This document shows, in pieces, positions 1,100 to 55,895 of a DNA stretch of 64,000 nt. Within the stretch, counting starts at the first letter, position 1; the number at the start of each line of letters is the position of its first letter. Both the position numbers and the translations under genes were made by a program. Origin of the DNA: Patescibacteria group bacterium (lineage in GTDB: Bacteria; Patescibacteriota; Minisyncoccia; UBA6257; 2-01-FULL-56-20); assembly GCA_018971305.1 (NCBI GenBank), contig JAGXBC010000001.1:98284-162283 (forward strand), given 5' to 3'. The notes under the pieces were generated by a model. The model saw only the letters and a list, made by a program, of their open reading frames with translations, had not been told where the DNA came from and made no database searches.

Positions 1100-1276
1100 A
1101 AAATTTCTCGCTTGAAGAAATTTATCGCGGTTCTCGGGAAGGGAAAGTTGTAGTAAGTCAGCATTGGGATGGTTGGCGTGTATTAGTACTCCTTGGCTTA
1201 AACCCTTGCGGGCCTTACACCTAGAGCCTATCAACGTCGTAGTCTTCAACGAACACATGATACCTAATCTTGGGGT

Positions 1277-1310
<34 letters not shown>

Positions 1311-1428
1311 CTTCCCGACATAGCTACCCGGCGCTTCAGTTGGTACCAAAGCCGGTAGACCAGAGGTCAGTTCAGCCCAGTCCTCTCGTACTAGGGCCAA
1401 CTCCCCTCAAGTATTAACGCCTGCAACA

Positions 1429-1469
<41 letters not shown>

Positions 1470-2125
1470 ACGTGCCACTTTAATTGGCGAACAGCCAAAC
1501 GCTTGGGAGCTTCTACACCCCCGCGCTGTGGCGAGCCGACATCGAGGTGCCGAGCGAAGTCGTCGATAGGAACTCTCGGACTTCACCAGCCTGTTATCCC
1601 CGGAGTAGCTTTTATCCGGTGTCTCCGATCTTTCTATGAAGAATCGTCGGGTCACTAACTTCTGCTTTCGCATCTGCTCGACTTGTATGTCTCGCAGTTA
1701 AGCCGGCTTTTGCGTTTACACGTCCTGCCCGATTTCCATCCGGGCTAAGCCGACCTTAATAAACTCCTCCGTTACTCTTTTGGAGGAAAACGCCCCATTT
1801 AAACTGCCTACCAAGCACTGTCCCGGTGAGATTTCCATTGTTAGGTTTCTCACTGGTTAGACGTTAAAGTTTTAAAAATGGCTGTTTCATTGTCGGATCC
1901 ACGGCGCCCGAGAGCACCGCTTCAAATCCTCACCACTACGCTACGTAGTAAAACTCTAAAATCAATACCAAGCTGCAGTAAAGCTTCCGGGGTCTTTTCG
2001 TCCCGCTGCAGGTATCCCGCGTCTTCACGGGAATCGCATTTTCACCGAGCTTGCCTCTGAGACAGTTCTCTGATCGTTACGCCTTTCGTGCGCTTCGGAA
2101 CTTACCCGAAAAGGAATTGCGCTTA

Positions 2126-2825
2126 ATTGTGTTATTCTGCCCGGCTCCTTTTCCGGACAACTCTGCATATCGCTATGCAGTTCGGACTATATCTTATCTA
2201 AACCCGAACCGCTCTGCGGTTTTAGGGCTGACCCCAACATATAGTCTCTGAGGATTCTAAAAACGTTTCTTTCTTCGATTCGTTTTGCCTGCAAATTTTA
2301 AAATCTTCTGCCATCCATTTTTTGTTAGGTGTTTCTTTCTCGCCATATCCGCAACAACTTTCTTAAAAATAGAAAAGTCGTTTATTTTATATGTTCGGAG
2401 TGGAAACCTATCAAAGAATGGAATAATAGTGCTTTGCAATTCCGAAATTGACCTTACGCAATAGCGATAAAGATGTTCATGATGATTATCGTATCGTTTA
2501 TTCAGAACGATACTGCCACAACTAAAAAATTCTTTTATCGCTTCTAGCGCTTTTAAACTTTTAGCGCCTTGTGTAATTACGAATTCCGGAAAAATTTGCT
2601 TGCCGAATCGAGTGGTCGGATTCTTGATAACCGAAATTACGAAGCTTCCTTCGCCATCGGTAAATCCAGAAATCCAACTTGCCATTTTTAGCCTTTCCTG
2701 CTGATTGTCTGCACCGAAAACTTTTTTACCTGGCATAATATATCTATGGACGTATTATACCATAGTAGTCTCGGATTCTCCAGATATTCCAGCATATAGT
2801 TGAGTTTTACTAAAGCAACGCATTC
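2126..2825 (-). mobile_element. Group I intron in the 23S rRNA. It is inserted between exon sequences that correspond to E. coli ...CGGTCCTAAGGT|AGCGAAATTCC... (about position 1917).
   Basis: Exon homology to 23S stops after ...CGTTCTAAGGT (complement of 2826-2836). It resumes at AAGCGCAATTCCTTTTCGGGTAAGTTCC (complement of ~2124 downward). The ~700 nt between encode a LAGLIDADG ORF. Boundaries are good to +/- a few nt. Confidence 0.7.
2257..2736 (-). CDS. LAGLIDADG-family homing endonuclease (single-motif, I-CreI-like), encoded inside the intron.
   Basis: 159 aa containing ...WISGFTDGEGSF..., the LAGLIDADG motif. It lies wholly within the 23S interruption. Confidence 0.85.
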   Translation of the reverse strand: MPGKKVFGADNQQERLKMASWISGFTDGEGSFVISVIKNPTTRFGKQIFPEFVITQGAKSLKALEAIKEFFSCGSIVLNKRYDNHHEHLYRYCVRSISELQSTIIPFFDRFPLRTYKINDFSIFKKVVADMARKKHLTKNGWQKILKFAGKTNRRKKRF

Positions 2826-5035
2826 ACCTTAGAACGATTATAGTTATCGCTGACATTGACGAGGGCTTGAGCCGGTGGGCAGTACATATTGCTACATACC
2901 ACTCCCAGCCTTGACCTTCTCGCATCGGTCAGGCGTCACCCCCTATACATCCTCTTGCGAGTTCGCAGGGAGCTGTGTTTTTGGTAAACAGTCGCCAGAG
3001 AGACTTTCGCTGCGGCCCTTCAATGAAGAAGGGCAGGCCATATCGCTAACTTACGGCCGCTTTTTTGCCGAGTTCCTTAGAGGCAAATCACTCGTTCCCC
3101 TTGGGCTTCTCGCCCTATCCACCTGTGTCGGTTTCCGGTACGGATCCCACATAACATAAACACCGCGCTTTTCTCGGAAGGCTATTCGTCGAAGTTTGCG
3201 GAGTAAATTCTCCGCATTCCCGCTCTCCCGGCCGGAGCCTTAGAGCACGGATGCCAAACCAATAAGGCACTTCGATTTATTTCCTTCGCACACTATGTGT
3301 AATTATGCGGGAGGGACGGAATATTAACCGTCTGACCATCAGCTGCGGCTTTCGCCATTGCCTTAGGACCGCCTAACCCGTGGTTGATTGCCAGTGCCAC
3401 GGAAACCTTGGATTTTCGGGGTTCCAATTTCTCATTGGGATTGTGGTTACTCATGCCAACATTTGCTCTTCGTACCGCTCCACGCGCCCTCGCGGGTCGG
3501 GCTTCAACGCAATACGAATGCTCTCCTACCACACCAATGCACAGCATTGGAAGCTCCAAACTCCAAAAATACAATTTCCAAACGTTTGGAAATTAAATAC
3601 TTGGAATTTGAAATTTCCAGTGCCATGCACTGGCATTCATATCTTCGGTACCATGCTTAGCCCCGGTACATTTTCGGCGCACATCGCCATCGAATAGTGA
3701 GTTGTTACACACTCTTTAAAGGATGGCTACCTCTAAGCCAACCTACTATCTGTCTATGGCGACACACTACCTTTAACACTTAGCATGGATTTAGGGACCT
3801 TAGATGATGATCTGGGCTGTTGCCCTCGCGACCATGGAGCTTAGCCCCCACAGTCTGACTAATGGAATTTTGACTCTTGGTATTCGGAGTTTGATTGATC
3901 TGTCGGCCTTTCGGCCTTTACAGATCATCCAGTGCTCTACCCCCAAGAGGAACTTCCACCGCTAGTCCTAAAACTATTTCGGAGAGAACCAGCTATTACC
4001 AGATTCGATTAGCTTTTCACTCCTTACCTCAGGTCATCCGAAGGTTTTGAACAACCAACCGGTTCGGGCCTCCAGTCCGCTTTCGCGAACTTTCACCCTG
4101 CCCAAGGCAAGCTCATCTGGCTTCGGGTCTATACTGCACTGCTTTATTTCGCCCTATTAAGACTCGGTTTCCCTATGCGTACATACCATTTAGGTACTTA
4201 CACGAGCAATGCAAAAATAAGTCGTTGGCTCATTCTTCAATAGGCACACTGTTGTCCTCGTTCTTCCTCTCGAAAAAACGTTCGGACTTCAGTTCCTTGT
4301 AGACAAATGGTTTCAGGTTCTATTTCAACGGCCTCACCGGCCTGCTTTTCGCCTTTCCCTCACGGTACTTGTTCACTATCGATCATCAAAAGTATTTAGC
4401 CTTACCAGATAGTACTGGCAAATTCCTTCGAGACTGTTTGACCTCGAAGTACTCAAGATGCAGCTTGATTTAACTCTTGCTGCAAAAAAACTAAGAAGTT
4501 CTCCGGTTTTCGCCTACCGGGCTATCACCGTCTTTGGCGCCCCTTTCCAGTGGGCTTCGACTAACCGAAAAATTTGTAACTTCTCCTTATTCCGTAAACC
4601 GCCAAATCTCCGACTCCGCCAGACGGCGGATCGGAAACTCGGCGATTCAAAGAACAGAGTTTTTTTCTTTTTACCCCAAGCTCTAAAACTTAGAGCTTAG
4701 TTTGGGCTCTTCCCTTTTCTCTCGCCGATACTAAGGGAATAACGTTTGTTCTTTATTCCTCCGCTTACTGGAATGTTTTACTTCAGCGGGTTTGCTTTCG
4801 GCTTACGCCGAAAAATTGAGGTTTGCTCAATTGGGTTTCCCCATTCGGAAATCCCCGGATCGCAGGTTGCTACGCACCTCCCCGGGGCGTATCGTTGCTA
4901 CGCCACGTCCTTCATCGCCTTTTGATGTCTAGGCATCCACCATTCGCCCTTATTGCCAACCATCCCAATACTGACTTTTTGCCGAGACTGAGAGAAAGAG
5001 GTCTCTATTATAAATAAAGAGACCGGAGTTTTTGC

Positions 5036-5108
5036 AGGCACGGGCAGGAATCGAACCTGCGATTAGATGGCTTGCACACCATCCGCCTTACCACTTGGCT
5101 ACCGTGCC
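5036..5108 (-). tRNA. tRNA, most consistent with tRNA-Cys(GCA), but the anticodon loop is non-canonical at 8 nt.
   Basis: Minus strand reads GGCACGG-TA-GCC..GGC-G-GATGG-UGUGCAAG-CCATC-TAATC-GCAGG-TTCGATT-CCTGC-CCGTGCC-T. Acceptor and T arms are canonical. The discriminator is U73, as in tRNA-Cys. The anticodon stem GATGG/CCATC leaves an 8-nt loop that contains GCA. Confidence 0.5.
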
Positions 5109-8588: not shown

Positions 8589-10082
8589 TTATTTAACGTG
8601 GTGTTTTTCTTTGATCTCCTCCTCGACGCCATCCTCAAATTCATCTTTGCGGTTTTTGGCTTTTTCCGCAAGCTTTTTAAGATCGTTGTCAGACATACTG
8701 CCCAGTTCTTTTACTCTCTCCTCCAGTTTTTCTTTGTCGTTACCTTTCGGTTCATCCAAAACCTCCTCTAAAAGGACCGATAAAACCCAACCAACGCGCG
8801 GTCCGGGCGGTACTTCTAAAATTTTCATCACATCATCACCGCGCACCGCAAGCATCTTCGGAGAAATAGGATCACGCTTGACTTTATCTATCATAAATAA
8901 AAGGTGGCGCAGTTTATAGGGAAACGCCTTGGGCACTCCCGAGCCGATCCTGTCAGCTTCGCGGACTTGCAACAGCTCATCAACGCTTTCCGGACCGACG
9001 CGAGCTAAAAACCTGCGCACCCCGGCGGCGGATACTTCATCGGTGTTGTAATAAAACATATGATAGCGGACAAGGTGTGCCACTTTCTCGGAAAATTCTT
9101 TGGGGAAGTGCAGGCGGTCAAGGGAGATGGTAGCAAGTTTTGCTCCGATATATTCGTGCTGATAAAAAGTCGAGTCCGGACCCTCGCCCCTCTTTGATTT
9201 CGGCTTGCCCACATCATGTAAAAGCGAGGCCAATCGCACTTCGGTCGAATAATTTTGCTTGGCGGTGTAATCGAGAGCACGCACGTTATGTTCGAAAACT
9301 GTGTAAATATGATGCTTATTCTGGCCGACATTTATCCCCTCACGCAGCTCGGGAATAACGTTCCTCAATAAATTAAGTTCTTCCAAAAGAATTATACCCT
9401 GGGCCGCGCGCGGACAGTTTAGAATCTTTATGAACTCGTCGCGGATGCGCTCTTTGGCTATCATCTCCAGTTCGCCGGAAAGTTTTTCGATGGCCTTACG
9501 CGTGCTTGGCTCTATCTGAAAATCCAACTCAACGGCAAAGCGGACCGCGCGCATTAGGCGCAACGCATCTTCAGAGAAACGCTCCTCTGAGTTGCCCACC
9601 GTACGAATAATTTTATCCTTCAGGTCGTCTTGCCCCTCAAAAGAGTCGATAATTTCACTTTTCTTCCCAACAACATCAAGCGCGAGGGCATTTATCGTAA
9701 AATCGCGCCTGGCCAGGTCTTCTTCCACCGTTTTGGCAAACTTAATTTCGTCCGGATGGCGTTTGTCGGTATATTTTCCTTCTATTCTATAAGTAGTAAC
9801 CTCCACAACCTTAAGCCGCGGGTCTTCCGACTCGGTTTTTATGCCAACTGTTCCAAAATCATTTTCATAAACCGTGGCGGGCTTGTCCTCCGTAGCACCA
9901 GCAAAGGAGGAAAATAATTTCTGCACTTCTTCCGGTTTGGCATTCGTAGTTATATCCCAATCTTTCGGCTCTCTTCCCAGCAAAAGATCGCGAACACAGC
10001 CGCCAACAAGATGGGCGTCGTAACCGGCCTCATTAAGCCTCTTCCCGATTCTTTTAACCTCTTTGGGGATGTCGTAATTCAT
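8589..10082 (-). CDS. cca: CCA-adding tRNA nucleotidyltransferase with an HD domain, plus a Lys/Glu-rich C-terminal tail.
   Basis: The N-terminus has GGCVRDLLLGREPKDWDITT, the PolyA_pol head signature. HDVGKP marks the HD domain. 497 aa. Confidence 0.8.
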   Translation of the reverse strand: MNYDIPKEVKRIGKRLNEAGYDAHLVGGCVRDLLLGREPKDWDITTNAKPEEVQKLFSSFAGATEDKPATVYENDFGTVGIKTESEDPRLKVVEVTTYRIEGKYTDKRHPDEIKFAKTVEEDLARRDFTINALALDVVGKKSEIIDSFEGQDDLKDKIIRTVGNSEERFSEDALRLMRAVRFAVELDFQIEPSTRKAIEKLSGELEMIAKERIRDEFIKILNCPRAAQGIILLEELNLLRNVIPELREGINVGQNKHHIYTVFEHNVRALDYTAKQNYSTEVRLASLLHDVGKPKSKRGEGPDSTFYQHEYIGAKLATISLDRLHFPKEFSEKVAHLVRYHMFYYNTDEVSAAGVRRFLARVGPESVDELLQVREADRIGSGVPKAFPYKLRHLLFMIDKVKRDPISPKMLAVRGDDVMKILEVPPGPRVGWVLSVLLEEVLDEPKGNDKEKLEERVKELGSMSDNDLKKLAEKAKNRKDEFEDGVEEEIKEKHHVK

Positions 10083-10163: not shown

Positions 10164-10649
10164 ATGGAACAATACGAGATAGCTCCAAAAATATTTCTAG
10201 AAACAGTAAAGTGCGCGCTTTCTCTCCGTAAGCCCGAATACATCTTCATCCGACAGGTCGGCTCCGCGGGCGGTAAAACCATTGTAAGCATAGAATTGAG
10301 GAATAAAAATCTGTCTTTGCAAAAAACTCGCGGCGGAATAAAAATAATCGTCAATAAAAAAGAGATATTTTTCTGGAGAACGTCGCGCTCGCTGCTCAGC
10401 GGAAAACAATGGTCTATTGCGTACGAACGCTGGGACGAAAATAACCGGCTCCATCACGCTGTCACCGGGTACGAAAATCCCGACGACAACGCATTGCCGC
10501 GAATTGTAAAGACATTCTTACGTGCGGTAAGTTCCGATCGTCATTACGGAGAAATTAGATTTAACGGGAAAATTTCTATAATAGTTGATGAGAAAAACAC
10601 GAACAGGAACGAAAATGTCGCTTACTGGAAGTGGAAACTAAAAAAATAA
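10164..10649 (+). CDS. Hypothetical protein.
   Basis: 161-aa ORF, divergent from cca, with a terminator immediately downstream. Confidence 0.4.
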   Translation: MEQYEIAPKIFLETVKCALSLRKPEYIFIRQVGSAGGKTIVSIELRNKNLSLQKTRGGIKIIVNKKEIFFWRTSRSLLSGKQWSIAYERWDENNRLHHAVTGYENPDDNALPRIVKTFLRAVSSDRHYGEIRFNGKISIIVDEKNTNRNENVAYWKWKLKK

Positions 10650-10651
10650 CC

Positions 10652-10681
10652 CCGACGGCCAATAACCGTCGGCAATTTTTT
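10652..10681. terminator. Bidirectional Rho-independent terminator between convergent genes.
   Basis: CCGACGG-ccaataa-CCGTCGG is followed by caaTTTTTT on the plus strand. The same hairpin is preceded by an A-run, so it reads as a T-run on the minus strand. Confidence 0.55.
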
Positions 10682-10781: not shown

Positions 10782-11924
10782 CTACCTTATTTCGGCGTTG
10801 AATTGACCCTTTGTCTCATCTATAACTTTATTCTGTAACGGTTCTATCTCTTCGGTCTTTAGTGTCCGCTCGTTGGAACGATAGATGATACGGTACGTGT
10901 AACTAATTTTATCCACCCCGAATTTTTCCGCATTCTCATATTTATCAAGCAGCGAAACTTCTTCAACGAGATCCCCTCCTATATCGCGGATAAGGTCAAA
11001 ATAATTATTCGGCACAAAGCTCTTATCTACTACAAAAGAAATATCACGCGTGATGGGCGGGAATTTGCTGACCTCTTTGAATTTCTGTCCAAGTTTTAAT
11101 TGACGAGTGACGCGCGGATCGTTGGACCACAAAAGCCGGATATCCGGAAGCTGCATACTCAAAATCGCCAGGCGCTCCAAACCAAAACCAAAAGCCCAAC
11201 CGTTCCAGATTTTTGAATCCACGCCCAAATTGTCCAGAACTTTTGACTGTACGACGCCGCTCCCCAAAACTTCCACCCAATTGCCGGCCAGATCAATCTC
11301 CATTTCCAAACTCGGGTCCGTATAAGGAAATGTGTCTTTATTAAAACGATACTTAATATCTTTTCCGTAAATCGCCTGCGCGATTTTTACCAAAACATCC
11401 TGTAGCTCCTTGATGCCGATTTCTTTTTCTTCCCTGCGGCAAAGATACCAGCCGTCTATCTGATGGAAAACATTCATGTGCTTGCGGTCTATTTCGTCCT
11501 TGCGGTAAACCTTGCCATAAGAAAGCGCGCCAACGGCCTCTCCTTTCTTTATCTTTTCTTTCACCGATTCAAGCCCAAGCCAGTAATACCACATTATAGT
11601 GGTGTGCGTGCGCAAAATATTGGCGTCGTCCACGTAATACGTGTCCGAACGGCTCCGCGCCGGATGATCCGGAGGAAAATTAAATAAGTCAAAGCTTTCC
11701 TTGACGGGAACTATTTCCGGAACGTTTATCACGTCGAAATCCTTGAAGTCGGGCAGGGTTACCACTCTCTCGGCCAATTCGTGGATAGGATTTCCCGGCG
11801 TACGCGAAAGGTCCGGCATGTCCAAAAACCGCCGCATGCGCGCGGCCTCGGCGTCTGTGCGTTTTTCAAGCACTATCCGCAAACGTTTTGCCCCAGAAGA
11901 ATCGATTGTTGTTTCTTTGTGCAT
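10782..11924 (-). CDS. pheS: Phenylalanyl-tRNA synthetase alpha-type catalytic subunit fused to a C-terminal FDX-ACB anticodon-binding domain (monomeric, mitochondrial-like architecture).
   Basis: Class II aaRS motifs are present: motif 2 is FPPDHPARSRSDTYY and motif 3 is GWAFGFGLERLAIL. The C-terminal ~95 aa (FPPITRDISFVVDKSF...ERTLKTEEIE...) closely resembles the FDX-ACB domain normally found at the C-terminus of PheT. The long N-terminal coiled coil of bacterial PheS is absent. Confidence 0.8.
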   Translation of the reverse strand: MHKETTIDSSGAKRLRIVLEKRTDAEAARMRRFLDMPDLSRTPGNPIHELAERVVTLPDFKDFDVINVPEIVPVKESFDLFNFPPDHPARSRSDTYYVDDANILRTHTTIMWYYWLGLESVKEKIKKGEAVGALSYGKVYRKDEIDRKHMNVFHQIDGWYLCRREEKEIGIKELQDVLVKIAQAIYGKDIKYRFNKDTFPYTDPSLEMEIDLAGNWVEVLGSGVVQSKVLDNLGVDSKIWNGWAFGFGLERLAILSMQLPDIRLLWSNDPRVTRQLKLGQKFKEVSKFPPITRDISFVVDKSFVPNNYFDLIRDIGGDLVEEVSLLDKYENAEKFGVDKISYTYRIIYRSNERTLKTEEIEPLQNKVIDETKGQFNAEIR

Positions 11925-11949: not shown

Positions 11950-12972
11950 TTATCTCCGCCCCAACTCATCATTATAGTCTTTCAAAAATATATTACGTAA
12001 GCCATTCAATGATACATCGGATACATGCGTTCCCAAAAACTCCATAATGTTTTCCTCGGCCCGCCCATAATCTTCACCTCTGCTTTTTCGCTTTTCGTCG
12101 TCCACTTCACGCAAGGCCTCTTTCTCTGTCACCACAGAATCCAGGTCAACAATTCGGCCATCCAAAGTGATATTGTGATCAGAAAGATAGCCGTGTAGCC
12201 AGCCATGCTTGTGCATTCTGGCAATATTCTGTGCCGTCGTTTTTGTAAGCCAAATTAAATAATCTGTAGTATTAAATTTTTTTGGATCCAGCCCCAATTC
12301 TTGCGCCACTAGCAGGCGGGCGTCTTCGATCAGCTCTCTTTTATCATATGCATCTTCAAGCCGCATACGCGTCCCGAACGCGCGCACCAGCACAACCGGT
12401 TCGTCTTCGGAACGAAGATTGCCGGCCTCTTTCGCTTCTTTAATTCCCATTCTACGCCCACCACTGCCTATAATTTCGTTGAGTTTAATGAGCGCTATGT
12501 CGCGATGCGTCCTTATACCTGCCTTAAGAAATTTTTCGCTCATATCAATATCGCTCCTCGCGTAACCCTCATCTAGAATACCCCACGTTGATTCTTTATT
12601 TCTCTCGTGTGGCACCGGGGGCCGAACGGCGAGCCGAGGATTATAGTAATCATTAAATGCGTAGCCGATACCCTTAACGTCAACATCCCTATAAAGCCGC
12701 CCCTCATCATCTTTGAAAATAACGTGCCCGATTATGCCTGACCGCTTGTGTTGCCTATGAACTTCAAGCTCATATCCGTCCTCCGGATAATCTTCCTGTG
12801 TAAGGAACATTCCCAATTTGGACGGTTTCCCTTCTCGCAGATCAAAGGGCAACTGAAGATGGGGGTTTACCCACTCCACGACGTTCTTAACTTCAACTGC
12901 CGGAAGGGTTTCGCGCCCCTCCGCCAGTTTATCTCCGCCAATACCGATTGGTAAATTTTCTTTATTTTTCAT
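11950..12972 (-). CDS. Protein-kinase-like fold phosphotransferase (Kdo/WaaP/APH-like), function unknown.
   Basis: The HGWLHGYLSDHNITLDGRIVDLDS catalytic-loop-like segment points to this fold. The tracked ORF (to 13068) begins inside tRNA-Met, so the start is moved to the first ATG after the tRNA (12970-12972), giving MKNKENLPIG.... Confidence 0.5.
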   Translation of the reverse strand: MKNKENLPIGIGGDKLAEGRETLPAVEVKNVVEWVNPHLQLPFDLREGKPSKLGMFLTQEDYPEDGYELEVHRQHKRSGIIGHVIFKDDEGRLYRDVDVKGIGYAFNDYYNPRLAVRPPVPHERNKESTWGILDEGYARSDIDMSEKFLKAGIRTHRDIALIKLNEIIGSGGRRMGIKEAKEAGNLRSEDEPVVLVRAFGTRMRLEDAYDKRELIEDARLLVAQELGLDPKKFNTTDYLIWLTKTTAQNIARMHKHGWLHGYLSDHNITLDGRIVDLDSVVTEKEALREVDDEKRKSRGEDYGRAEENIMEFLGTHVSDVSLNGLRNIFLKDYNDELGRR

Positions 12973-12980
12973 ATTTTCTG

Positions 12981-13052
12981 TGCCGACGGCAGGAATCGAA
13001 CCTGCGACCCAGCGCTTATGAAACGCTTGCTCTACCACTGAGCTACGCCGGC
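12981..13052 (-). tRNA. tRNA-Met (elongator-type, anticodon CAU).
   Basis: GCCGGCG-TA-GCTC-AGTGGTA-GAGC-A-AGCGT-TTCATAA-GCGCT-GGGTC-GCAGG-TTCGATT-CCTGC-CGTCGGC-A. The anticodon stem lacks the GGG/CCC of initiator tRNAs. Confidence 0.85.
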
Positions 13053-13191
13053 AATTATTCCTCCCCAAACATGCCGTTCCCTTAAATATTTTTTAACATT
13101 TATTTTGTCTATTGGCAAAAAAAGCTTGATAAAAGAAGCTTGGCGGCGTACAATTGATTATAGATTGAAAGAAAATTTGCGGGGGTGACAC

Positions 13192-37091: not shown

Positions 37092-38306
37092 TTAGCTGCC
37101 GAAACTGGACGTTAGCTTATAAAGCGGGATGATAATGGCCGCAAATAAGAGGCCCACCATTACACCGATAACAACCATTAAGAGCGGCTGGATAAGGTCA
37201 ACGAGGTTGTTGGTAACCGTATCCGCCTCACGGCTGTAGAAATTACCCAGTCGGATAAAAATCTGTTCGATTTTTCCGGTTGTTTCCCCGACCGCTACCA
37301 TCTGGGCCACGAGCGGAGGGAAATATTCCGGATATTCTTCTATACTTTGTGAAAGCAACCTCCCCTGTCGCACTTTCTCCGCAATTTCGTGCAAGATATC
37401 GCGATAAAGTACGTTACCAACCATATGGCCCATAACTTCCAAGGCCTGAGCTACGGGAATGCCGCCGTGGACCAAAAGTACTGCGGCATTTGAAAACCTG
37501 GATATTGTGAGCGGTAAAAAAACTTTATTCAAAAGAGGCAGCTTAATTTTTGCGTCATCTACCATGGCACGGCCTTCCGGCGTACGCGCATAATCCAACG
37601 CCAAAATAACCAAGCCCACGAGAACCACGAGGACGAGCAGCCACCACTTCCCTAAAAACGTACCACTGGAGAGTAATACTTGGGTATAAATAGGCAGTTG
37701 CACGTTCGATTGCTGGAAAATTGGCAAGAGCTGCGGGAAAACGAATGTGACCATAATAAAACCCACGACAATAAACAAACCGACGATTATTCCCGGATAG
37801 ATAAGCGCGGAAGAAGCCTTGCTTGCCAAGATACCTTCTTTTTCGGTGTAGTCAGCTAAAAATCCCGCGACTTCATTCAGGTTTCCAGTAATTTCGGCAG
37901 CACGCACCATTTCAACGTAGAAACTGGGAAAAACATCTCCCTGCCTATCCATCGCCTGAGAAAAAGAAAGTCCGGCATCAATATCTTCCGCAACCTGGAA
38001 AATTGCCTCCCGGAGCACTGGCTGTCTTGTCTGGGCGTAAAGAGTTCTGAGTGCGGCGTTCAGAGGCAAACGTGCTTCCAACAGGGTGGCAAGCTGACGC
38101 GCAAAAATAACCATATCCTTGCGCTTAACTCTGCCGAAGTAACTAGCAATGTTTTCAAACCAGCTCTTACCCTCGGCCGACTCTATGCTTAATATAAAAA
38201 GGTTGTGCCCGGCTAAAATATTGGCAGCGGAATCCCTATCTCCTGCCTCCACAAAACCGATCTGCATTTCTCCTTCCTGGGTTTTGGCTTTGTACTTGAA
38301 TTTCAT
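37092..38306 (-). CDS. pilC: Type IV pilus inner-membrane platform protein (GspF family).
   Basis: MKFKYKAKTQEGE..G...A.....A...L, a typical PilC N-terminus. Two GspF repeats with TM helices. Confidence 0.8.
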   Translation of the reverse strand: MKFKYKAKTQEGEMQIGFVEAGDRDSAANILAGHNLFILSIESAEGKSWFENIASYFGRVKRKDMVIFARQLATLLEARLPLNAALRTLYAQTRQPVLREAIFQVAEDIDAGLSFSQAMDRQGDVFPSFYVEMVRAAEITGNLNEVAGFLADYTEKEGILASKASSALIYPGIIVGLFIVVGFIMVTFVFPQLLPIFQQSNVQLPIYTQVLLSSGTFLGKWWLLVLVVLVGLVILALDYARTPEGRAMVDDAKIKLPLLNKVFLPLTISRFSNAAVLLVHGGIPVAQALEVMGHMVGNVLYRDILHEIAEKVRQGRLLSQSIEEYPEYFPPLVAQMVAVGETTGKIEQIFIRLGNFYSREADTVTNNLVDLIQPLLMVVIGVMVGLLFAAIIIPLYKLTSSFGS

Positions 38307-38392
38307 AGCTTGCGGAGCATGCAACAAGAAACATATAACCTTGAGCCCAGAATTCGGTGATACTCAACGTTACGTATCCCCTGTTCCATGTT

Positions 38393-39466
38393 TTACGTCC
38401 TTTCGAGAAGTATCCGGAGTTCTGCCGGATTCAAAGAGTAGAGCTCGGCGTTCTCCAGCGTAACTTCTTTGTTTTTTATCAAACCTACAAGTGAACGATT
38501 GAGCGTAACCATTCCTTCCTGTAAGCTCGTCTCAATAACGAGGTCTATCTGATAAATTTTCCGTTCACGGATGAGATTCCTTATAGCAGGATTCACAAGC
38601 ATGATTTCCATAGCCGGAATTCTTCCTCCCGATATGCGCGGCAAGAGACGCTCGGAAACGATGGCCACAAGAGTGGCGGCAAGTTGAGATGTGACCTGCC
38701 CCTGCTGTTCTGCCGGGAAAGAATCTATGATTCGGTCTATTGTTTGGGAAGCAGAGTTTGTGTGAAGAGTGGAGAATACCAAGTGGCCGGTTTCCGCAGC
38801 CGTCATGGAAGTGGCAATAGAAGTAGCGTCGCGCATTTCGCCGATCATAATAACATCCGGATCTTGACGCAAAATCGTCCGCAAACCGGCGTGGAATGTC
38901 GGCGTGTCGGTTCCCACTTCTCTTTGTGACACAATGCATCTGTCCTGAGTAAAAAGATATTCTATCGGGTCCTCAATCGTAATAATGTGATCGGAGCGCG
39001 TATGATTGACCTCATCTAGAACCGCGGCAAGAGTTGAGGATTTTCCGTGCCCCGCCGGACCCACTGCCAAAACGAAACCCTGGGAAAGCCTGGTGAAATC
39101 ATGGAGTATCGGCGGCAGGTTGAGTTCTTCAATATTCTTTATACGCGCCGCGATAAGCCGGAGGGAAGCCGCGACATATCCGCGCTGGAAATAAACGTTG
39201 GTCCTGAACCTGGCCTTCTCTTCAAAACTATAAGCGAAGTCCAATTGCTTATCTTTTAAGAATCGCTCTTTTTGTTCCGAGTTCAAAAGATTGAAAACCA
39301 ATCCTTCGGCAACCTCCGGAGTAATCACGGGCTCTTTTTGCAGGGGAACGAGAACTCCGTCCACCCTCAAGGTTGGCCGCCTGCCTACGGCAATGTGCAA
39401 ATCCGAAGCATTAAGCTTCGCTGTAGTTATTAATAAATCTTTTAATTTATCTTTATAGTCATCCAT
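38393..39466 (-). CDS. pilT: Type IV pilus retraction ATPase (twitching motility).
   Basis: 357 aa. Walker A is GPAGHGKSST. PilT-type layout, shorter than PilB, lacking the N-terminal GSPII domain. Confidence 0.8.
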   Translation of the reverse strand: MDDYKDKLKDLLITTAKLNASDLHIAVGRRPTLRVDGVLVPLQKEPVITPEVAEGLVFNLLNSEQKERFLKDKQLDFAYSFEEKARFRTNVYFQRGYVAASLRLIAARIKNIEELNLPPILHDFTRLSQGFVLAVGPAGHGKSSTLAAVLDEVNHTRSDHIITIEDPIEYLFTQDRCIVSQREVGTDTPTFHAGLRTILRQDPDVIMIGEMRDATSIATSMTAAETGHLVFSTLHTNSASQTIDRIIDSFPAEQQGQVTSQLAATLVAIVSERLLPRISGGRIPAMEIMLVNPAIRNLIRERKIYQIDLVIETSLQEGMVTLNRSLVGLIKNKEVTLENAELYSLNPAELRILLERT

Positions 39467-39478
39467 TTATTTATATTA

Positions 39479-41200
39479 TTACATATCTTCTGTTTCTCGG
39501 ATAACCTCCTCTATAGTCACCAAACCATCAAGCGCCTTCAAGACACCGTCAGTCCTCATCGTCATCATCCCCTGGTCTTTGGCAACTTTGAATATTCTCT
39601 GCTGAGTGGGACCACTGCTTATCACCTCCTCCAGCTCCGGAGACATTTTTAATACCTCAAACAGGGCGCCGCGGCCGACGGTTCCTCGCCCCCTGCATTT
39701 AGGACAGCCTTTGCCGTGATATATCTTGTGGGGTTCTTTGTATTTAGATTGCAATTCTGGTGGTAAGTCGCTAAGAGCTTTATTAATGGCTTTTTCAATG
39801 GCCGGTGACGCAGCTTCGGCCTCTTTGCAGTCCTGGCAAAGCAAACCAACAAGTCTCTGCCCTATCATAAGATTAAGAGACACTGGCAAAAGAAATGGCT
39901 CTATCTTCATATCAAGCAAACGCGGAATAACACCAAGGGCGTTATTGGTGTGCAAGGTTGAAAGAACTATATGTCCGGTAAGAGCGGCCTGTACGCCAAG
40001 TCCGGCAGTTTCGTTATCACGGATCTCGCCGACCATAATAATGTCGGGGTCCTGGCGAAGAATCTGCCTCAAGCCCGAAGAAAAATCATAACCTATCTCC
40101 GGACGAACCTGCGACTGGTTTACTCCGGAAACAAAATACTCAACCGGATCTTCCAAGCTTACGATGTTAACGTTCTCTTTATTTAATATCTGCAACAGCG
40201 CGTAGATAGTGGTTGTTTTACCAGAACCCGTAGGCCCGGTGACAAGAATCATGCCGAACGGCTTATTAATCCCCTCCTTAACGATATCCAGGTTTGTATG
40301 TATCAATCCGAGATCGCTAAAGTCCTTTAAGCCAACAGTGGAATCCAGTACTCTGATAGCCACTTTTTCCCCAAGCGGCGTAGGGAAAGTTGAAACGCGG
40401 AAATCTATTTCCCTGTCAAAAACCCTGGAGCGGAATCTGCCGTCCTGCGGGATGCGATTTTCATCTATTTTCAAACTGGAAATAACCTTTATCCTTGAAA
40501 TTACCGGCTGAGACAACTCTAATGGCAACGAGGCAACTTCGCGCAAATCGCCGTCAACCCTGAATCTGATCCTCAAGTAACTCTCCTGCGGTTCAATATG
40601 AATATCCGAGGCCTTGGAAGAAATAGCTTCCTTAAAAGTATCGCCGACAATTCTAATTATCGGAGCCTCATCCCTGGAACCGCCCTCATCCAAACTTACG
40701 ATTTTTCTCCCGCCCTCTCCATGTTTAAGCCCTAGCGACTGGACAGCTCTTTCCACTTCTGAACGATAGGGGGAATATTTTCTGAGAACCGACTCCCAAT
40801 CCCCATAAGAGATAACATAAACCCCGAGGTTGAGATGACTTTGCCGCGCCACAAATTTTAGAGCATCCTGAGCCTTAGTGTCGTCCGGGTTCAACATGCC
40901 GACAACAAGCAAATTGTCTCTTCTGCTGATAGGTATAGAGCCGTAAGTTCTCGCCGTTTCTTCCGGAATCATATCCAAAATATCGCTGCTTATTGCCGCA
41001 GCATCAATTTTTTTGTAAGGAACATTCAATGTCACGCTCTTTAATCTTGCCAATTTCTCTTCATCAATCAGCCGGCGCCCGAAAATAATCGCCTCGGCCG
41101 AACGACCGGACAGTAAAGACTCGCGCCGCAGTTTAGTTACTGCCGGCTCATCTAACAGTTTGGCTCGTTGGATTTGTTTTAATAATTCGTCGTCTGACAT
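39479..41200 (-). CDS. pilB: Type IV pilus assembly (extension) ATPase, GspE family, with a C-terminal tetracysteine.
   Basis: 573 aa. Walker A is GPTGSGKTTT. A GSPII-like N-terminus and the Cys motif CQDC....CPKC. Confidence 0.85.
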   Translation of the reverse strand: MSDDELLKQIQRAKLLDEPAVTKLRRESLLSGRSAEAIIFGRRLIDEEKLARLKSVTLNVPYKKIDAAAISSDILDMIPEETARTYGSIPISRRDNLLVVGMLNPDDTKAQDALKFVARQSHLNLGVYVISYGDWESVLRKYSPYRSEVERAVQSLGLKHGEGGRKIVSLDEGGSRDEAPIIRIVGDTFKEAISSKASDIHIEPQESYLRIRFRVDGDLREVASLPLELSQPVISRIKVISSLKIDENRIPQDGRFRSRVFDREIDFRVSTFPTPLGEKVAIRVLDSTVGLKDFSDLGLIHTNLDIVKEGINKPFGMILVTGPTGSGKTTTIYALLQILNKENVNIVSLEDPVEYFVSGVNQSQVRPEIGYDFSSGLRQILRQDPDIIMVGEIRDNETAGLGVQAALTGHIVLSTLHTNNALGVIPRLLDMKIEPFLLPVSLNLMIGQRLVGLLCQDCKEAEAASPAIEKAINKALSDLPPELQSKYKEPHKIYHGKGCPKCRGRGTVGRGALFEVLKMSPELEEVISSGPTQQRIFKVAKDQGMMTMRTDGVLKALDGLVTIEEVIRETEDM

Positions 41201-41261
41201 TGCTTTTTAGTTAATTGACCTACGTTGCTTATAAAATTTGGGGTTGGCTATCGGATGCGAC

Positions 41262-41555
41262 TTACTGCACTGGTACAAAGGGATTATCGCGACCTGCATT
41301 ACCGGGAACCGGGGGAGCGACATATTGCTTTAAGGACTGAAAACTCTGGCTGTTTATTACGTCTTCGGGATTCAACTTTATTTTGGAGAGCGGATCAACG
41401 TTTTGGAAGTTAGCGGGAGCGGCTACTTCCACCAATTGAGGCTGATTGAAAAAGATGTAATAAACAGCCGCAACAATAATTCCAAGAACTGCAAGCCAGG
41501 TTATAATGCTCACTATATTTGTTTTGTTTTTTTCTTCTTCTAAAACTATAGCCAT
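41262..41555 (-). CDS. Small membrane protein in the pilus operon (PilP-like?).
   Basis: 97 aa with a single TM segment IITWLAVLGIIVAAVYYIFF. It sits between pilO and pilB. Confidence 0.4.
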   Translation of the reverse strand: MAIVLEEEKNKTNIVSIITWLAVLGIIVAAVYYIFFNQPQLVEVAAPANFQNVDPLSKIKLNPEDVINSQSFQSLKQYVAPPVPGNAGRDNPFVPVQ

Positions 41556-41591
41556 GTTAATTTATTTTGTTGTATATTTTATCACTCCGTA

Positions 41592-42200
41592 TCACTTGGT
41601 AATCTGATAATAGGTAACCAGGGATAAATTGTAATGATAGATAGGAATGGCCACTCCTTTGTCTGGAGGCGTCGGCTGGATACCCAAAGACTTCACGTCA
41701 AAAATTCTTATATTGGTTTCCAACATAGAAACAAATTTTTGGAAGTCGCTATACGAACCGCTGCCGGAGAGGTTTATATTAACCGATCCTACCGGTTTCT
41801 GCAGGGAGGACTGTGCTGATTTTTGGGCTGCCGGACCATACGCCGCGCCACCCGTGGAGCCAGAAGAAGAAAGACCTATAGAAGGTATTTCTATAGAACT
41901 GGCCTGAGTCAAACCATAAATTTGCACCAAGGCACCAGCCAAATCTTCTCCGTCGGGCAAGGCAGCAGAAACGACTTGCTGAACCTGACCCTGCCCTTGA
42001 TAAGCGCTTATCAAGGCTTGCACCTGCTGTATCGCATTTTTCTCAGAATTCAGGAATGCCTGCTTGCTTAGTTCGTCTGCTTTTATACTTTGGGCGTCTT
42101 GATATGCCGGCTGTATCAACTGAGAATAAATAACTATAGAAGCCACGAGAAAGAATAATCCCAGTATCAAACTTAGAAATCTTTTTGTTGGTTGTTTCAT
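41592..42200 (-). CDS. pilO: PilO-like pilus assembly protein.
   Basis: 202 aa with an N-terminal TM segment then coiled coil. Position between PilN and PilB. Confidence 0.5.
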   Translation of the reverse strand: MKQPTKRFLSLILGLFFLVASIVIYSQLIQPAYQDAQSIKADELSKQAFLNSEKNAIQQVQALISAYQGQGQVQQVVSAALPDGEDLAGALVQIYGLTQASSIEIPSIGLSSSGSTGGAAYGPAAQKSAQSSLQKPVGSVNINLSGSGSYSDFQKFVSMLETNIRIFDVKSLGIQPTPPDKGVAIPIYHYNLSLVTYYQITK

Positions 42201-42229
42201 TTTCCAATATTGATAGAGAACTTATAAGT

Positions 42230-42817
42230 TTATTTACCGGAAGAATTTACCGTGGAAGCGGAAAAGTACCCTCCGATAAATTTCAGGTCAACACTGAATT
42301 GCCAATTGTTGCCGCTACCGGAGACGCCATTGGTTTCCATACTTGTAAGTTCCGGCAAGGATTGGAAGATCGCCAATTGTTGTCCAACGTCCGCTACGGA
42401 CTTGGCTGTTCCCGATAAAGATACTTGACCCCCTTGTGAGTCTAGGCTGAAACTTGTCCAGTAAACATTGGTCTGGGTATTTTTACTAAGCCAGGAAAAG
42501 ATCCTGGAAGAGATAGTATGGTTGTCCAATAATTTTTTAAGGTTGGCTAACTGGGAATAGAATTGTATTATTTTCGCCTGCTGATCAAGTGGTATTTGCT
42601 GGCCAAAAGCTTGGATCTGGTCCTGTAATTGCTGAACCTGCGTATTCAAATAAGATTTATAGCCAAAAGCGAGTCCGAAATATATAAGCAGGCTAAAAAT
42701 AAAAACCGTGCTGGAAAACATTAAAAGCTGGCGAGACCAACCCGGGGTTTTGGGAGGCTCTCTGCCTATTTGCTCTAAAGCTTTTTGGGGTAGTGGCATG
42801 ATTATGGTAAATTTCAA
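42230..42817 (-). CDS. pilN: PilN-like pilus assembly protein.
   Basis: 195 aa with an N-terminal TM segment then a coiled coil (QVQQLQDQIQ). Directly downstream of pilM. Confidence 0.5.
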   Translation of the reverse strand: MKFTIIMPLPQKALEQIGREPPKTPGWSRQLLMFSSTVFIFSLLIYFGLAFGYKSYLNTQVQQLQDQIQAFGQQIPLDQQAKIIQFYSQLANLKKLLDNHTISSRIFSWLSKNTQTNVYWTSFSLDSQGGQVSLSGTAKSVADVGQQLAIFQSLPELTSMETNGVSGSGNNWQFSVDLKFIGGYFSASTVNSSGK

Positions 42818-42897
42818 TTTACATTTTTACAGTTCCCAGATGTCTCAAAAGGCAAATCGGGAATCGTTTAAAAATTGTAAATTAATGATCGGGGGAT

Positions 42898-43995
42898 TTA
42901 TGTGAACTCCCTAAGCGCTAATCCCAGTGCCACGCTCATTACTGGGCTTAACTCCGGAATTAATGGTTCAACGGCCAACGGATATTCAAATTTGGCAAAA
43001 GGGGCGGTTATGGCTATCGGTAATTTAAGCTCCTTTTCAAAATATTTTTCTATCCCCGGCAGGTTTGCTCCCCCGCCGGAAAGGATTATCCGCTCAGGAT
43101 TTGCAGCTTTGGGAAATTGGCCTCCGTATTTATAGAGTGCCTTTCTCACCTCATTAATTATAGCATCCAAAAAAGGCAACATTATTGTGGATAACTCGTA
43201 GTTTGGACCAGTTCCTATGACACCGCGTTCCTTCTTTAGCTCCTCGGCGCGCAAAGGGTTAATCCCCAAACTCACGGCTATAGCCTGCGTGAGAGACGAC
43301 CCGCCGAAATCATTCTGGGTAAAGAATTTAAGCTGGCCTTTTTCTAGAAATGTAATGCTTGTTGAGCGGCTGCCGATGTCTACTACCGCAGTAGGGGTCG
43401 GATCAACTCCCCCAAAAATCCTTGCCAGGCCCAGATTTTCAATTTCCAGGGCTTTAAGATGAAGTCCGGCAGCCTTAAAAATTTTCTGATACTTCTTTAT
43501 CTGTTCCTGCGGAACGGATATCAAAAGTATTTGGTTGTGATCAAAACCTTTATCGTCCCGATAATCCCCTACCTTCAGCCAATCCAGAGCGACTTCTGAT
43601 ATAGGCTGAGGTATATATTGCTTCGCTTCAAACACCAATGATTTTTCCAATTCACTTGGCTTCATAGCCGGAAAATCCAATACGGTCATAAAGGCTAAAA
43701 ATGGCGGCAGAGACGCAAGGGCTTCCGTAGTATCCGTCTTCATTTCCGCAACAACCATCTTTAAAAGATCAACAACTTCGTTATCAAAAAGTTTTAGCGA
43801 ACTTGTTTGTAGCGCCTGGTTAGCTCTCGCGAGATAACCGCTCGACTCCAAAATACCGTAATTAGTTATTTCCGGAGACTGCTTGCCCTGTTTTATGTCT
43901 GCTACCTTTATGGATGTAGTACCGATATCTACTGCCAAATAAGACGGGAAAACCTTCTGTTTAAAAAATTTAAAAAGGCCGAAGGGGTTGTTCAT
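42898..43995 (-). CDS. pilM: Type IV pilus assembly protein PilM (actin-like ATPase fold).
   Basis: 365 aa. N-terminus ...YLAVDIGTTSIKVA, an actin-fold phosphate-1 motif. First gene of the pil operon. Confidence 0.75.
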   Translation of the reverse strand: MNNPFGLFKFFKQKVFPSYLAVDIGTTSIKVADIKQGKQSPEITNYGILESSGYLARANQALQTSSLKLFDNEVVDLLKMVVAEMKTDTTEALASLPPFLAFMTVLDFPAMKPSELEKSLVFEAKQYIPQPISEVALDWLKVGDYRDDKGFDHNQILLISVPQEQIKKYQKIFKAAGLHLKALEIENLGLARIFGGVDPTPTAVVDIGSRSTSITFLEKGQLKFFTQNDFGGSSLTQAIAVSLGINPLRAEELKKERGVIGTGPNYELSTIMLPFLDAIINEVRKALYKYGGQFPKAANPERIILSGGGANLPGIEKYFEKELKLPIAITAPFAKFEYPLAVEPLIPELSPVMSVALGLALREFT

Positions 43996-45451: not shown

Positions 45452-45988
45452 ATGCCAATTGGAAGCTCCTCAATTTCTTTATGGGGGATAGCCTCGTCAA
45501 TATTTGATCTTTACTGGACCGGCGAACTTATCTGGGCCGTAGTTATAATTGGGATAGCGACAATTCTTGCCTTCCGAGCGATTTACAGAAAAGAACGGAG
45601 ATTTATAAAAAACATTTCAAAAAGGTTTACTATTTTCTCGCTAACTAGCGTCAGCCTAGATGCCGAACTCGACCTTGTTAAACGGAGCGGATTATTCAAT
45701 GCGCCGGGTAAGATAGAAACGGATCAGCGAATTTTCGATGGCCTTGATAGAAATCAAGGCCTGCTCGTTCTTGCAATCGATGAAAAAACCAATGAACAGA
45801 CGTTCGAGCAAATTTACAGGAAAATAGAGGCATTGCGGAAGCCGGTGATCATCTACACCGCGGGCAACAGACAAATCCCTTGGCTGACTAGCGATTTACA
45901 CGCCTATTCTTTTTATACGATCGCAACGAGCCCCCTGAGATTGATGAGTGACATTTTTACAATCCTTTCCACATTCCCCAATGATTGA
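45452..45988 (+). CDS. Small two-TM protein with a ~110-aa C-terminal alpha/beta domain. Candidate membrane effector or sensor of the adjacent nucleotidyltransferase pair.
   Basis: 178 aa. TM helices at SLWGIASSIFDLYW and LIWAVVIIGIATILAF. The C-terminus has beta-alpha-beta-like segments (LLVLAIDE..., PVIIYTAG...). Its stop overlaps the start of the next gene. Confidence 0.5.
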   Translation: MPIGSSSISLWGIASSIFDLYWTGELIWAVVIIGIATILAFRAIYRKERRFIKNISKRFTIFSLTSVSLDAELDLVKRSGLFNAPGKIETDQRIFDGLDRNQGLLVLAIDEKTNEQTFEQIYRKIEALRKPVIIYTAGNRQIPWLTSDLHAYSFYTIATSPLRLMSDIFTILSTFPND

Positions 45989-47285: not shown

Positions 47286-47291
47286 ACCACC

Positions 47292-48071: not shown

Positions 48072-48102
48072 ATGCCCGCTAGGCAGAAAGGTATATTCGT
48101 CG

Positions 48103-49452: not shown

Positions 49453-49574
49453 ACCCTAAGGGATGACGCGATCTCCCTAGAAAGTCCAGACCTTCAAAGG
49501 CCGCCGAAACGCTCGTTTAATGCTTCCCCAGATTGTGCCACTCTCGCTATTAGCCGGGAGGTGGATTAAAATCG

Positions 49575-50791: not shown

Positions 50792-50803
50792 GAGGCTAAG
50801 GGT

Positions 50804-51199: not shown

Positions 51200-51202
51200 A
51201 AA

Positions 51203-54820: not shown

Positions 54821-54821
54821 G

Positions 54822-55424: not shown

Positions 55425-55429
55425 TTGGG

Positions 55430-55675: not shown

Positions 55676-55895
55676 TAGGATACCTTTATTTGCAAGGGCG
55701 ACACATATGTACTTATAGTAATGCGCTATTTCAAAAAGTCAAGTTTGCGTTGGGGATAAACATCCCGATGCCGGATTCCATCGTCACATTGATTTTTCAT
55801 AATAACTCATTTTCCGAGCACTTTCATAGATTGAATATTAGATCTCACAACTTAAAACTCCTCTTCGCGAGGAGCTTTAAGTTTTTCTTTTTCTC

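Follow-up and report, generated by a model that had tools for sequence, protein, structure and literature searches.

The 64,000-nucleotide stretch of contig JAGXBC010000001.1 (positions 98,284 to 162,283) of a Patescibacteria group bacterium (assembly GCA_018971305.1), which was analyzed here as a whole and is referred to below as the window, carries on its minus strand a gene (10782..11924) predicted to encode a single-chain phenylalanyl-tRNA synthetase (PheRS). This ATG-to-stop open reading frame (ORF) comprises 380 codons plus the stop codon, and its product consists of a PheS-type catalytic core (PF01409) followed by an FDX-ACB anticodon-binding domain (PF03147). In the light of the sequence comparisons, a structural model and the analogy with the mitochondrial enzyme, we think it likely that this product is the only PheRS of the cell, that it has no editing activity and that it works like its mitochondrial counterpart. 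Since the single-chain form is conserved across a large branch of the ultra-small Patescibacteria, the members of this branch probably charge tRNA-Phe without any beta subunit or proofreading domain.

Domain architecture and predicted fold

The two domains were both recognized by their Pfam profiles with scores far above the cut-offs. The class IIc catalytic core (amino acids 45-275; 11100..11792, minus strand) matches positions 17-245 of the 246-position tRNA-synt_2d profile with 186.5 bits, the cut-off being 19.8 (E-value 7.6e-55). The FDX-ACB domain, which is of the B8 type (amino acids 286-380; 10785..11069, minus strand), matches the whole 94-position profile (1-94/94) with 83.4 bits, the cut-off being 31.1 (E-value 1.6e-23). 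A linker of 10 residues joins the core to the FDX-ACB domain. On translation, the core was found to contain motif 2 (VYRKDEIDRKHMNVFHQIDG, nucleotides 11451-11510), the Phe-pocket loop FPYTDPS (nucleotides 11310-11330) and motif 3, WAFGFGLER (nucleotides 11172-11198), all of which are encoded on the minus strand. The initial annotation of this DNA, which was based on the sequence letters without any database searches, had proposed that a PheS core is fused here to an FDX-ACB domain and had attributed the C-terminal segment FPPITRDISF...ERTLKTEEIE to the latter; the profile scores bear out both proposals.

The initial annotation had also stated that the N-terminal coiled coil is missing, and this is indeed the case, since the part ahead of the core is no longer than 44 residues and Pfam gave no match with Phe_tRNA-synt_N in the window protein. 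These 44 residues (11793..11924, minus strand) form a short helical hairpin in the structural model (helices 10-21 and 25-35) at the place where canonical PheS has a coiled coil of about 90 amino acids, and the N-terminal consensus R..R.L.MPDLSR..G.PI.EL is kept across the family.

In comparison with the canonical (alpha-beta)2 PheRS, the core is homologous to PheS and the C-terminal domain to the B8 domain of PheT. The PheS of Escherichia coli aligns with the core only (tblastn, 32% identity over 234 amino acids, E-value 1e-37), and residues 696-794 of E. coli PheT align with the C-terminal domain both in tblastn and in a pairwise comparison (29% identity over 103 amino acids, E-value 3e-7). 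The window enzyme differs from the canonical one in that it has one chain instead of two and is devoid of B1-B7, and hence of the B3/B4 editing site, the B5 domain and the catalytic-like module.

A model of the protein was obtained with AlphaFold2 from 86 diverse single-chain sequences (mean predicted local distance difference test score 94.6, predicted template modeling score 0.90). When this model was compared with the PDB using Foldseek, the top matches were the closed-form structures of human mitochondrial PheRS (5MGH and 3CMQ), which align over the full length (E-value 1.5e-34, template modeling scores 0.79/0.74, root mean square deviation 2.8 Å), whereas bacterial alpha chains cover the core only (query-normalized score about 0.55). 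The model adopts the closed arrangement of 3CMQ and not the open, tRNA-bound arrangement of 3TUP (scores 0.79 vs 0.58), and its FDX-ACB domain shows the beta-alpha-beta-beta-alpha secondary structure of the ferredoxin-like type. At the sequence level, too, no PDB entry matches better than human mitochondrial PheRS (E-value 8e-58, vs 4e-38 for the best bacterial alpha chain). The organellar architecture which had been ascribed to the protein from the outset is thus found again in the sequence and fold comparisons.

The mitochondrial enzymes (human FARS2 and yeast MSF1; structures 3CMQ, 3TUP and 5MGH) share with the window protein the PheS-type core with a C-terminal FDX-ACB domain, the absence of both coiled coil and editing domain, motifs 2 and 3, the specificity Ala and the residues of the anticodon domain. 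They show only about 30% identity with it, however, and the insertion which splits the core alignment in the opisthokont mitochondrial enzymes is absent from the window protein. Unlike mitochondrial PheRS, the latter is encoded in a bacterial chromosome beside bacterial genes.

Conserved residues and proposed mode of action

The residues R141, H149, F153 and Q155 of motif 2, P200 of the Phe-pocket loop, and G246 and R251 of motif 3 are invariant in the 86 single-chain sequences. T202 and A244, which align with T251 and A294 of E. coli PheS, are invariant in 120/120 family members; the E. coli positions concerned are those which classically set the specificity for Phe. As regards the anticodon domain, D327 occurs in 84/86 sequences, position 329 is always aromatic (Y, F or W), and S341 and the C-terminal R380 are present in 86/86. 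These residues align with the FDVY motif, a Ser and the terminal Arg of E. coli PheT, and presumably correspond to the Thermus residues which read G34. Since the Phe-specificity, catalytic and anticodon-contact positions are all retained, the window protein has, to judge from its sequence, everything expected for activating Phe and reading the GAA anticodon. Among 120 homologues showing 70-81% identity with it, 32% of the positions are at least 98% invariant; on this sequence evidence, the single-chain PheRS is under strong purifying selection.

The following mode of action can be proposed. The core, in which the relevant residues are conserved, would bind ATP and Phe and form Phe-AMP, and the FDX-ACB domain, the contact residues of which are also conserved, would bind the GAA anticodon of tRNA-Phe. 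Since the model adopts the closed arrangement of 3CMQ and not the open one of 3TUP, the binding of the tRNA would be expected, by analogy with the human enzyme, to involve a large hinge rotation from the closed to the open state, after which Phe would be transferred to tRNA-Phe. The architecture suggests that the enzyme is probably a monomer. As there is no B3/B4 editing domain, Tyr-tRNA-Phe would not be proofread in cis, and the fidelity against Tyr would therefore have to rest on the synthetic site or on factors acting in trans.

Distribution and phylogeny

The single-chain form is widely distributed in the Patescibacteria. The protein search returned at least 100 homologues at 70-81% identity, all having the same two domains, from metagenome-assembled genomes (MAGs) labeled Liptonbacteria, Yanofskybacteria, Minisyncoccia and Paceibacterota. 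In a scan using a single genome for each GTDB species, close relatives were detected in 376 species (with the labels Liptonbacteria, Yanofskybacteria, Giovannonibacteria, Paceibacter and Doudnabacteria), two of which are represented by complete chromosomes (OY970175.1 and OY970382.1; sizes 888 and 899 kb). When a 45%-identical relative was taken as the query, Wolfebacteria, Staskawiczbacteria, Nealsonbacteria and Portnoybacteria were added among the matches listed. A more distant relative, showing 38% identity (L005:9463-10833 and L006:154-1524), has 13 in-frame TGA codons, 7 of which fall at conserved Gly columns, and is assigned for this reason to a lineage using genetic code 25, in which UGA encodes Gly (Gracilibacteria or Absconditabacteria). 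The database protein corresponding to this relative (P0128) is wrongly translated, UGA being read as Trp. In a library of representatives clustered at 50% identity, only 262 clusters match at E-values below 1e-30, and almost every one of the 150 with the best scores is single-chain; most of the cluster representatives which looked canonical proved to be members of the single-chain clade.

The genomic context was studied in 80 related loci, each from a different GTDB species and together amounting to 1.17 Mb (the gene with flanks of about 10 kb), in which the encoded protein shows at least 66% identity with that of the window. In the tree of these loci, the window groups with Liptonbacteria-labeled genomes, and the host is accordingly classified by its sequence affinities as a Patescibacterium of the Liptonbacteria-like Paceibacteria. 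The window protein is an exact match of the protein KGJ89_00545 of an NCBI MAG ('Patescibacteria group bacterium'), in which it is encoded on a contig of 319,838 bp and annotated as a 'hypothetical protein'.

A neighbor-joining tree of the catalytic core was drawn up with 100 bootstraps, using only two canonical PheS sequences as the outgroup. The Patescibacterial single-chain sequences form one clade (98/100), within which the subfamily of the window protein is supported by 100/100. The sister clade consists of the eukaryotic organellar and viral sequences (86/100), and the two canonical PheS lie outside both. The term 'mitochondrial-like' used in the initial annotation is therefore appropriate as far as the architecture and the fold are concerned, but the window protein does not belong to the same clade as the eukaryotic organellar enzymes in this core tree.

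Single-chain PheRS of about 340-375 amino acids were also found on 47 IMG/VR contigs (L088-L134), many of which are 200-536 kb long and resemble those of huge phages or giant viruses, and on a 341-kb phage-like ENA contig (L087). These proteins have the same fused architecture as the window protein but are shorter and 32-42% identical to it, and they group with eukaryotic organellar PheRS and not with the Patescibacterial clade. The existence of these viral forms, as well as the fact that the closest solved structure and many of the top cluster representatives are eukaryotic mitochondrial enzymes, could be taken to mean that the gene was recently acquired by horizontal transfer, the donor being either a eukaryote (with an organellar FARS2-type gene) or a virus (a giant virus or a huge phage). 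The tree speaks against such an origin, since the Patescibacterial clade lies outside the eukaryote-plus-virus clade and is not nested in it. The mean core identity to the window protein amounts to 80% in its own subfamily and 52% in the other Patescibacterial sequences, but only to 37-40% in the eukaryotic and viral forms (and 35% in canonical PheS); no close relative was found on the viral contigs, where the best match is 42% identical, and the base composition around the gene is ordinary. A recent horizontal acquisition is consequently regarded as highly improbable. Eukaryotic contamination or recent transfer was also rejected in view of the bacterial context of the gene (rRNA, tRNA, murD, gatA, ligA and pilus genes), together with the core tree.

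Single-chain PheRS of the Patescibacterial type were also detected on two contigs with labels outside the Candidate Phyla Radiation (CPR), namely L004 (JAIBBV010000034.1, 'Oligoflexia') and L040 (DASPNG010000107.1, 'Candidatus Binatia'). These labels may reflect either mis-binning or horizontal transfer.

Search for pheT

The initial annotation had pointed out that no pheT adjoins the gene. When the 64-kb window was searched by tblastn with E. coli PheS and PheT, the only match was the single-chain ORF, which PheT matched solely via the C-terminal FDX-ACB part, and no PheT occurs among the ten largest ORFs of the window. The same picture emerges from the 80 related loci, in which no B3_4, B5 or catalytic-like PheT sequence was detected over the roughly 10 kb analyzed to each side, and each of which carries a single copy of PheRS. 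The absence of an adjacent pheT is therefore not peculiar to the window.

Whole genomes were considered using the marker matrix of the anvi'o CPR training set (PMC8672522, supplement 1), which was read for 178 CPR genomes. FDX-ACB occurs without the PheT B5 domain in 25/178 of these genomes, 24 of which also lack the PheS N-terminal domain; this domain is absent from only 31 of the 85 genomes having both FDX-ACB and B5 (Fisher's exact test, p = 8e-8). Most of the genomes with FDX-ACB but no B5 share a distinctive profile, with no enolase and with RbfA present, as far as the half of the matrix which was checked for other markers is concerned; this suggests that they form a coherent lineage. Some other Paceibacteria have kept the canonical adjacent pheS-pheT pair: the Paceibacteria MAG PMX_810_sub, for instance, has one canonical pheS including the N-terminal domain, one adjacent pheT encoding 681 amino acids, and only one FDX-ACB protein. 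The supplementary tables of other CPR studies (the description of Minisyncoccus, the study on Parcubacteria streamlining, that on two novel Patescibacteria, and the remainder of the groundwater paper) contained nothing on pheS or pheT. In the CPR genomes carrying the fused form, the replacement of canonical PheS/PheT is favored over the coexistence of the two types.

A small tRNA-binding ORF beside the gene in some relatives

In 16 of the 80 related loci, an ORF of 130-150 amino acids matching PF01588 (tRNA_bind) only is located upstream of the PheRS gene on the same strand, at a distance of 11-175 nucleotides in 15 loci and about 670 nucleotides in the other one (L046). Examples are L049:9562-9978, L065:9511-9939 and L024:304-732, to which 13 other loci can be added. 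The carriers of this ORF, which we will call mini-beta, make up a nearly monophyletic subgroup, mostly labeled Doudnabacteria; the 'Candidatus Binatia' contig L040 also carries one. Mini-beta matches residues ~40-150 of E. coli PheT, corresponding to the B2 (tRNA_bind) domain, which has an oligonucleotide/oligosaccharide-binding (OB) fold, with E-values ranging from 1e-11 to 1e-18. The best NCBIfam model is pheT_bact (positions 46-151, 104 bits), followed by YtpR (79 bits), TapR (45 bits) and a CsaA-like model (23.5 bits). The protein search returned 554 proteins of this kind, all of which match PF01588 only and bear the JGI name 'phenylalanyl-tRNA synthetase beta chain'.

Stand-alone tRNA_bind proteins such as YtpR and TapR, presumably belonging to the Trbp111/CsaA type, are likewise separate OB folds of about 140 amino acids matching PF01588. 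Mini-beta differs from them in that it scores best with PheT itself and is located directly upstream of a PheRS gene. Sequence and position taken together, it would seem to be what is left of the beta subunit, kept beside the fused enzyme, and this speaks in favor of the fused protein as the functional PheRS of these genomes.

It might be suggested on these grounds that the single-chain protein is a PheRS which needs a small tRNA-binding partner acting in trans, so that the holoenzyme would consist of an alpha chain plus a mini-beta instead of being a monomer of the mitochondrial type. The 16 loci and the 554 proteins, with their affinity for PheT and their JGI name, are in keeping with this possibility. 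In a profile search, however, no such ORF was found in the 64-kb window, and the flanks of the gene (about 10 kb each) in the other 64 loci, which include the subclade of the window, are likewise devoid of it. In addition, the B2 domain is dispensable for aminoacylation in E. coli, and mitochondrial PheRS works without any tRNA-binding partner protein. The B2 domain has also been reported to be missing from many CPR PheT proteins (PMC5370408). A partner of this kind therefore seems quite unlikely in the case of the window enzyme, and an enzyme working on its own, like the mitochondrial one, is preferred. The alpha and beta subunits have been reported to cluster into one family in a paper on the CPR which mentions PheRS.

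Family models and the possibility of a paralogous ligase

Among the NCBIfam models, the highest score was obtained by the window protein with NF051887, 'PheS-related mystery ligase SrmL' (250 bits vs a cut-off of 300, amino acids 62-368). It scored 243.6 bits with TIGR00469 (pheS_mito), which is below the curated cut-off of 258.35, and 166.2 bits with TIGR00468 (canonical pheS), the cut-off of which is 237.45. SrmL is the top model both in this protein and in the other members of the Patescibacterial clade (250, 253, 220, 221 and 219 bits, all below 300), and its cut-off was reached by no relative tested. A relative which is 68% identical to the window protein (P0121) passes the pheS_mito cut-off (264.3 vs 258.35), as do 10/10 of the tested representatives, about 350 amino acids long, of the organellar-and-viral clade. 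The alignment with NF051887 spans both domains of the window protein, so that the fused architecture is evidently shared with SrmL, this comparison being one of architecture and not of biology. No paper describing SrmL was found in the literature search, and the name appears on none of the 240 listed homologues. The fused protein is called 'phenylalanyl-tRNA synthetase alpha chain' by JGI. By these scores and its position in the core tree, the window protein is placed in none of the named equivalog families under their curated cut-offs and is not regarded as an orthologue of mitochondrial PheRS.

These results have to be weighed against the possibility that the gene may encode a paralogous PheS-like ligase, analogous to SrmL, coexisting with canonical PheS/PheT and serving, for example, a special tRNA or a non-ribosomal aminoacyl supply. 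Several points favor such a paralogue or weigh against the view that the window protein is the sole PheRS. The SrmL model outranks pheS_mito, although the scores are below the cut-off in both cases, and NCBI annotates the family as 'hypothetical protein'. Two positions in the pocket have changed in a family-specific manner: the residue aligned with E210 of E. coli is an Asp in every CPR-clade member checked, and in 117/120 family members FPY stands in place of FPF, Tyr having replaced the second Phe. At both positions the family differs from the E. coli and organellar enzymes alike, mitochondrial PheRS having Glu and FPF where the window protein has Asp and FPY. The member on the Oligoflexia-labeled contig L004 lies among peptide-metabolism genes and not among translation genes. 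The evidence that pheT is absent covers the neighborhoods of the relatives and the window, which amounts to 64 kb of a 320-kb contig, so that a canonical pheS-pheT pair may possibly occur elsewhere in the genome. The genomes in the marker matrix are anonymous drafts, in which the absence of a B5 match may mean that PheT is divergent or that the assembly is incomplete, and the MAGs labeled 'Nealsonbacteria' hold both types of PheRS in different assemblies, without any clean split by name.

On the other hand, all the SrmL scores are below the cut-off and no listed homologue bears this name, while the residues responsible for Phe specificity and anticodon contact have been retained. Genomes of less than 1 Mb would not be expected to carry a redundant synthetase, if one argues from the size of the complete chromosomes of the relatives. 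CPR genomes having FDX-ACB but neither B5 nor the PheS N-terminal domain do exist, as does a CPR genome of the canonical type without the fused form, and in the Doudnabacteria it is beside the fused gene that the PheT-derived tRNA_bind gene is located. Taking both sides into account, the existence of a paralogous ligase seems unlikely, and the view that the single-chain protein is the sole PheRS of the cell is retained as the likely one.

Gene neighborhood

The initial annotation had described the flanking genes as unrelated and located on the opposite strand. This applies to the strand of a 161-amino-acid ORF on one side (10164..10649, plus strand), but the next gene on that side, cca (8589..10082, minus strand), and the ORF on the other side (11950..12975, minus strand) are on the same strand as the PheRS gene; nor is cca wholly unrelated, since it is a conserved partner in the relatives. 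The cca gene encodes a CCA-adding tRNA nucleotidyltransferase (Pfam PolyA_pol, PolyA_pol_RNAbd, HD and tRNA_NucTran2_2) and is located directly downstream of the PheRS gene in 10 of the 80 related loci, all of which are those nearest the window in the tree. The distance between the two genes ranges from -40 (overlap) to +37 nucleotides in eight of these ten loci and from 203 to 333 nucleotides in the other two; in L001 and L007, they are immediate neighbors. The tRNA-related character of this neighborhood, to which the mini-beta of the 16 loci described above adds, speaks for a PheRS.

The 161-amino-acid ORF, which separates PheRS from cca in the window, was likewise predicted to be a gene in the independent Logan contig L003. 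It showed no significant match with Pfam or NCBIfam and is absent between PheRS and cca in the close relatives. A GC-rich terminator-like hairpin with T-runs on both strands (10652..10672) sits between the 3' ends of the PheRS gene and this convergent ORF. It was detected in a consensus scan and represents no more than a match to a pattern; 7 terminator-like sites occur in the region, which is hardly more than expected in shuffled sequences (4.2 +/- 2.1).

On the upstream side, the ORF at 11950..12975 encodes 341 amino acids and ends 25 nucleotides upstream of the PheRS start codon, and is probably co-transcribed with the PheRS gene. A longer mechanical call (11950-13068, 372 amino acids, TTG start) overlaps a tRNA-Met gene; the ATG at 12975 is probably the true start codon. 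This ORF has no Pfam or NCBIfam match and is not a conserved upstream neighbor in the 80 related loci. The tRNA-Met gene (CAU anticodon; 12980..13052, minus strand), which was identified with ARAGORN and matches the Rfam tRNA model with 70.9 bits, heads the string of genes on this strand. In the window as a whole, neither a T-box nor any other regulatory element in Rfam scored high enough to pass the gathering threshold, and promoter-like hexamers are no commoner upstream of the PheRS gene than in shuffled sequence.

In 31 of the 80 related loci, the gene downstream of PheRS is gyrB. The product is unusually long in four of them (1124-1245 amino acids in L038, L039, L048 and L077, vs about 690 usually), which is consistent with the presence of an intein or some other large insertion.

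Other features of the window

The 23S rRNA gene (1167-4963, minus strand) is about 870 nucleotides longer than the Rfam model and contains an ORF for a LAGLIDADG homing endonuclease (2257-2736, minus strand). Insertions of this kind in the 23S gene are described as a hallmark of CPR bacteria (PMC11270868). No 16S gene adjoins the 23S gene, which is followed by tRNA genes and a gene for an APH-family kinase; the 5S gene is located at 736-851. To one tRNA gene (5036-5108, minus strand; 58 bits with Rfam), ARAGORN assigns no anticodon. When its anticodon loop is read by eye, it seems to have either 8 nucleotides (TGTGCAAG) or 6 instead of 7, and contains GCA (Cys).

A type IV pilus cluster is present at 37092-43995 (minus strand), comprising genes for PilM (42898-43995), a T2SSE/PilB ATPase (39479-41200) and T2SSF/PilC (37092-38327). 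The last part of the window (45948-64000) resembles a mobile or defense-like region. It carries genes for a nucleotidyltransferase with SMODS and AGS_C domains (45948-47285), two serine recombinases (48103-49452 and 62761-63939), a C5 DNA methylase (51705-52934), a terminase large subunit (57700-59322) and a ParB_N-N6/N4 methylase (59731-61065). The G+C content reaches 0.56-0.58 at 56-60 kb, vs about 0.45 elsewhere in the window. This region is probably an integrated phage or a similar element.

Significance

In all the bacteria studied to our knowledge, PheRS is a large heterotetramer, and it is the textbook exception among the class II synthetases; its beta subunit carries the proofreading site. 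No paper describing a single-chain PheRS in bacteria was found in the literature search. The kind of enzyme described here is known from mitochondria; what is new is that a large bacterial radiation has it as its conserved form of PheRS and probably as its only one.

When all these data are taken together, a broader scenario can be put forward, although only tentatively. A whole branch of the Patescibacteria, to which many Paceibacteria, the Doudnabacteria and one or more UGA=Gly lineages belong, may have replaced the universal bacterial alpha-2-beta-2 enzyme by an editing-free single-chain PheRS. In the Doudnabacteria, all that is left of the former beta subunit would be the tRNA-binding protein of 140 amino acids, and the enzyme would be of an alpha-plus-mini-beta type not described before. 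Since the bacterial clade is sister to all the single-chain PheRS of organelles and viruses, PheS might have been fused with FDX-ACB before mitochondria arose, and mitochondrial PheRS might stem from a bacterial or phage-borne single-chain enzyme and not from a fusion which originated in eukaryotes.

The use of a single-chain PheRS would also have consequences for the annotation of genomes. Pipelines which expect both pheS and pheT would score genomes of this kind as marker-deficient: the window protein is below the cut-offs of TIGR00468, TIGR00469 and TIGR00472, three models which we believe are used as markers by GTDB and CheckM. Annotation of the KEGG type hides the change, as the JGI names 'alpha chain' for the fused protein and 'beta chain' for the 140-amino-acid remnant illustrate. 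As a compact and self-contained bacterial PheRS, the enzyme might also serve as a scaffold for genetic-code engineering.

As regards the biology of these organisms, if hundreds of species do rely on a chain of 380 amino acids, the minimal cellular PheRS would be much smaller than has been assumed. The origin of the monomeric mitochondrial PheRS would then be testable against a bacterial sister group, and the editing of Tyr-tRNA-Phe would be dispensable for an entire radiation.

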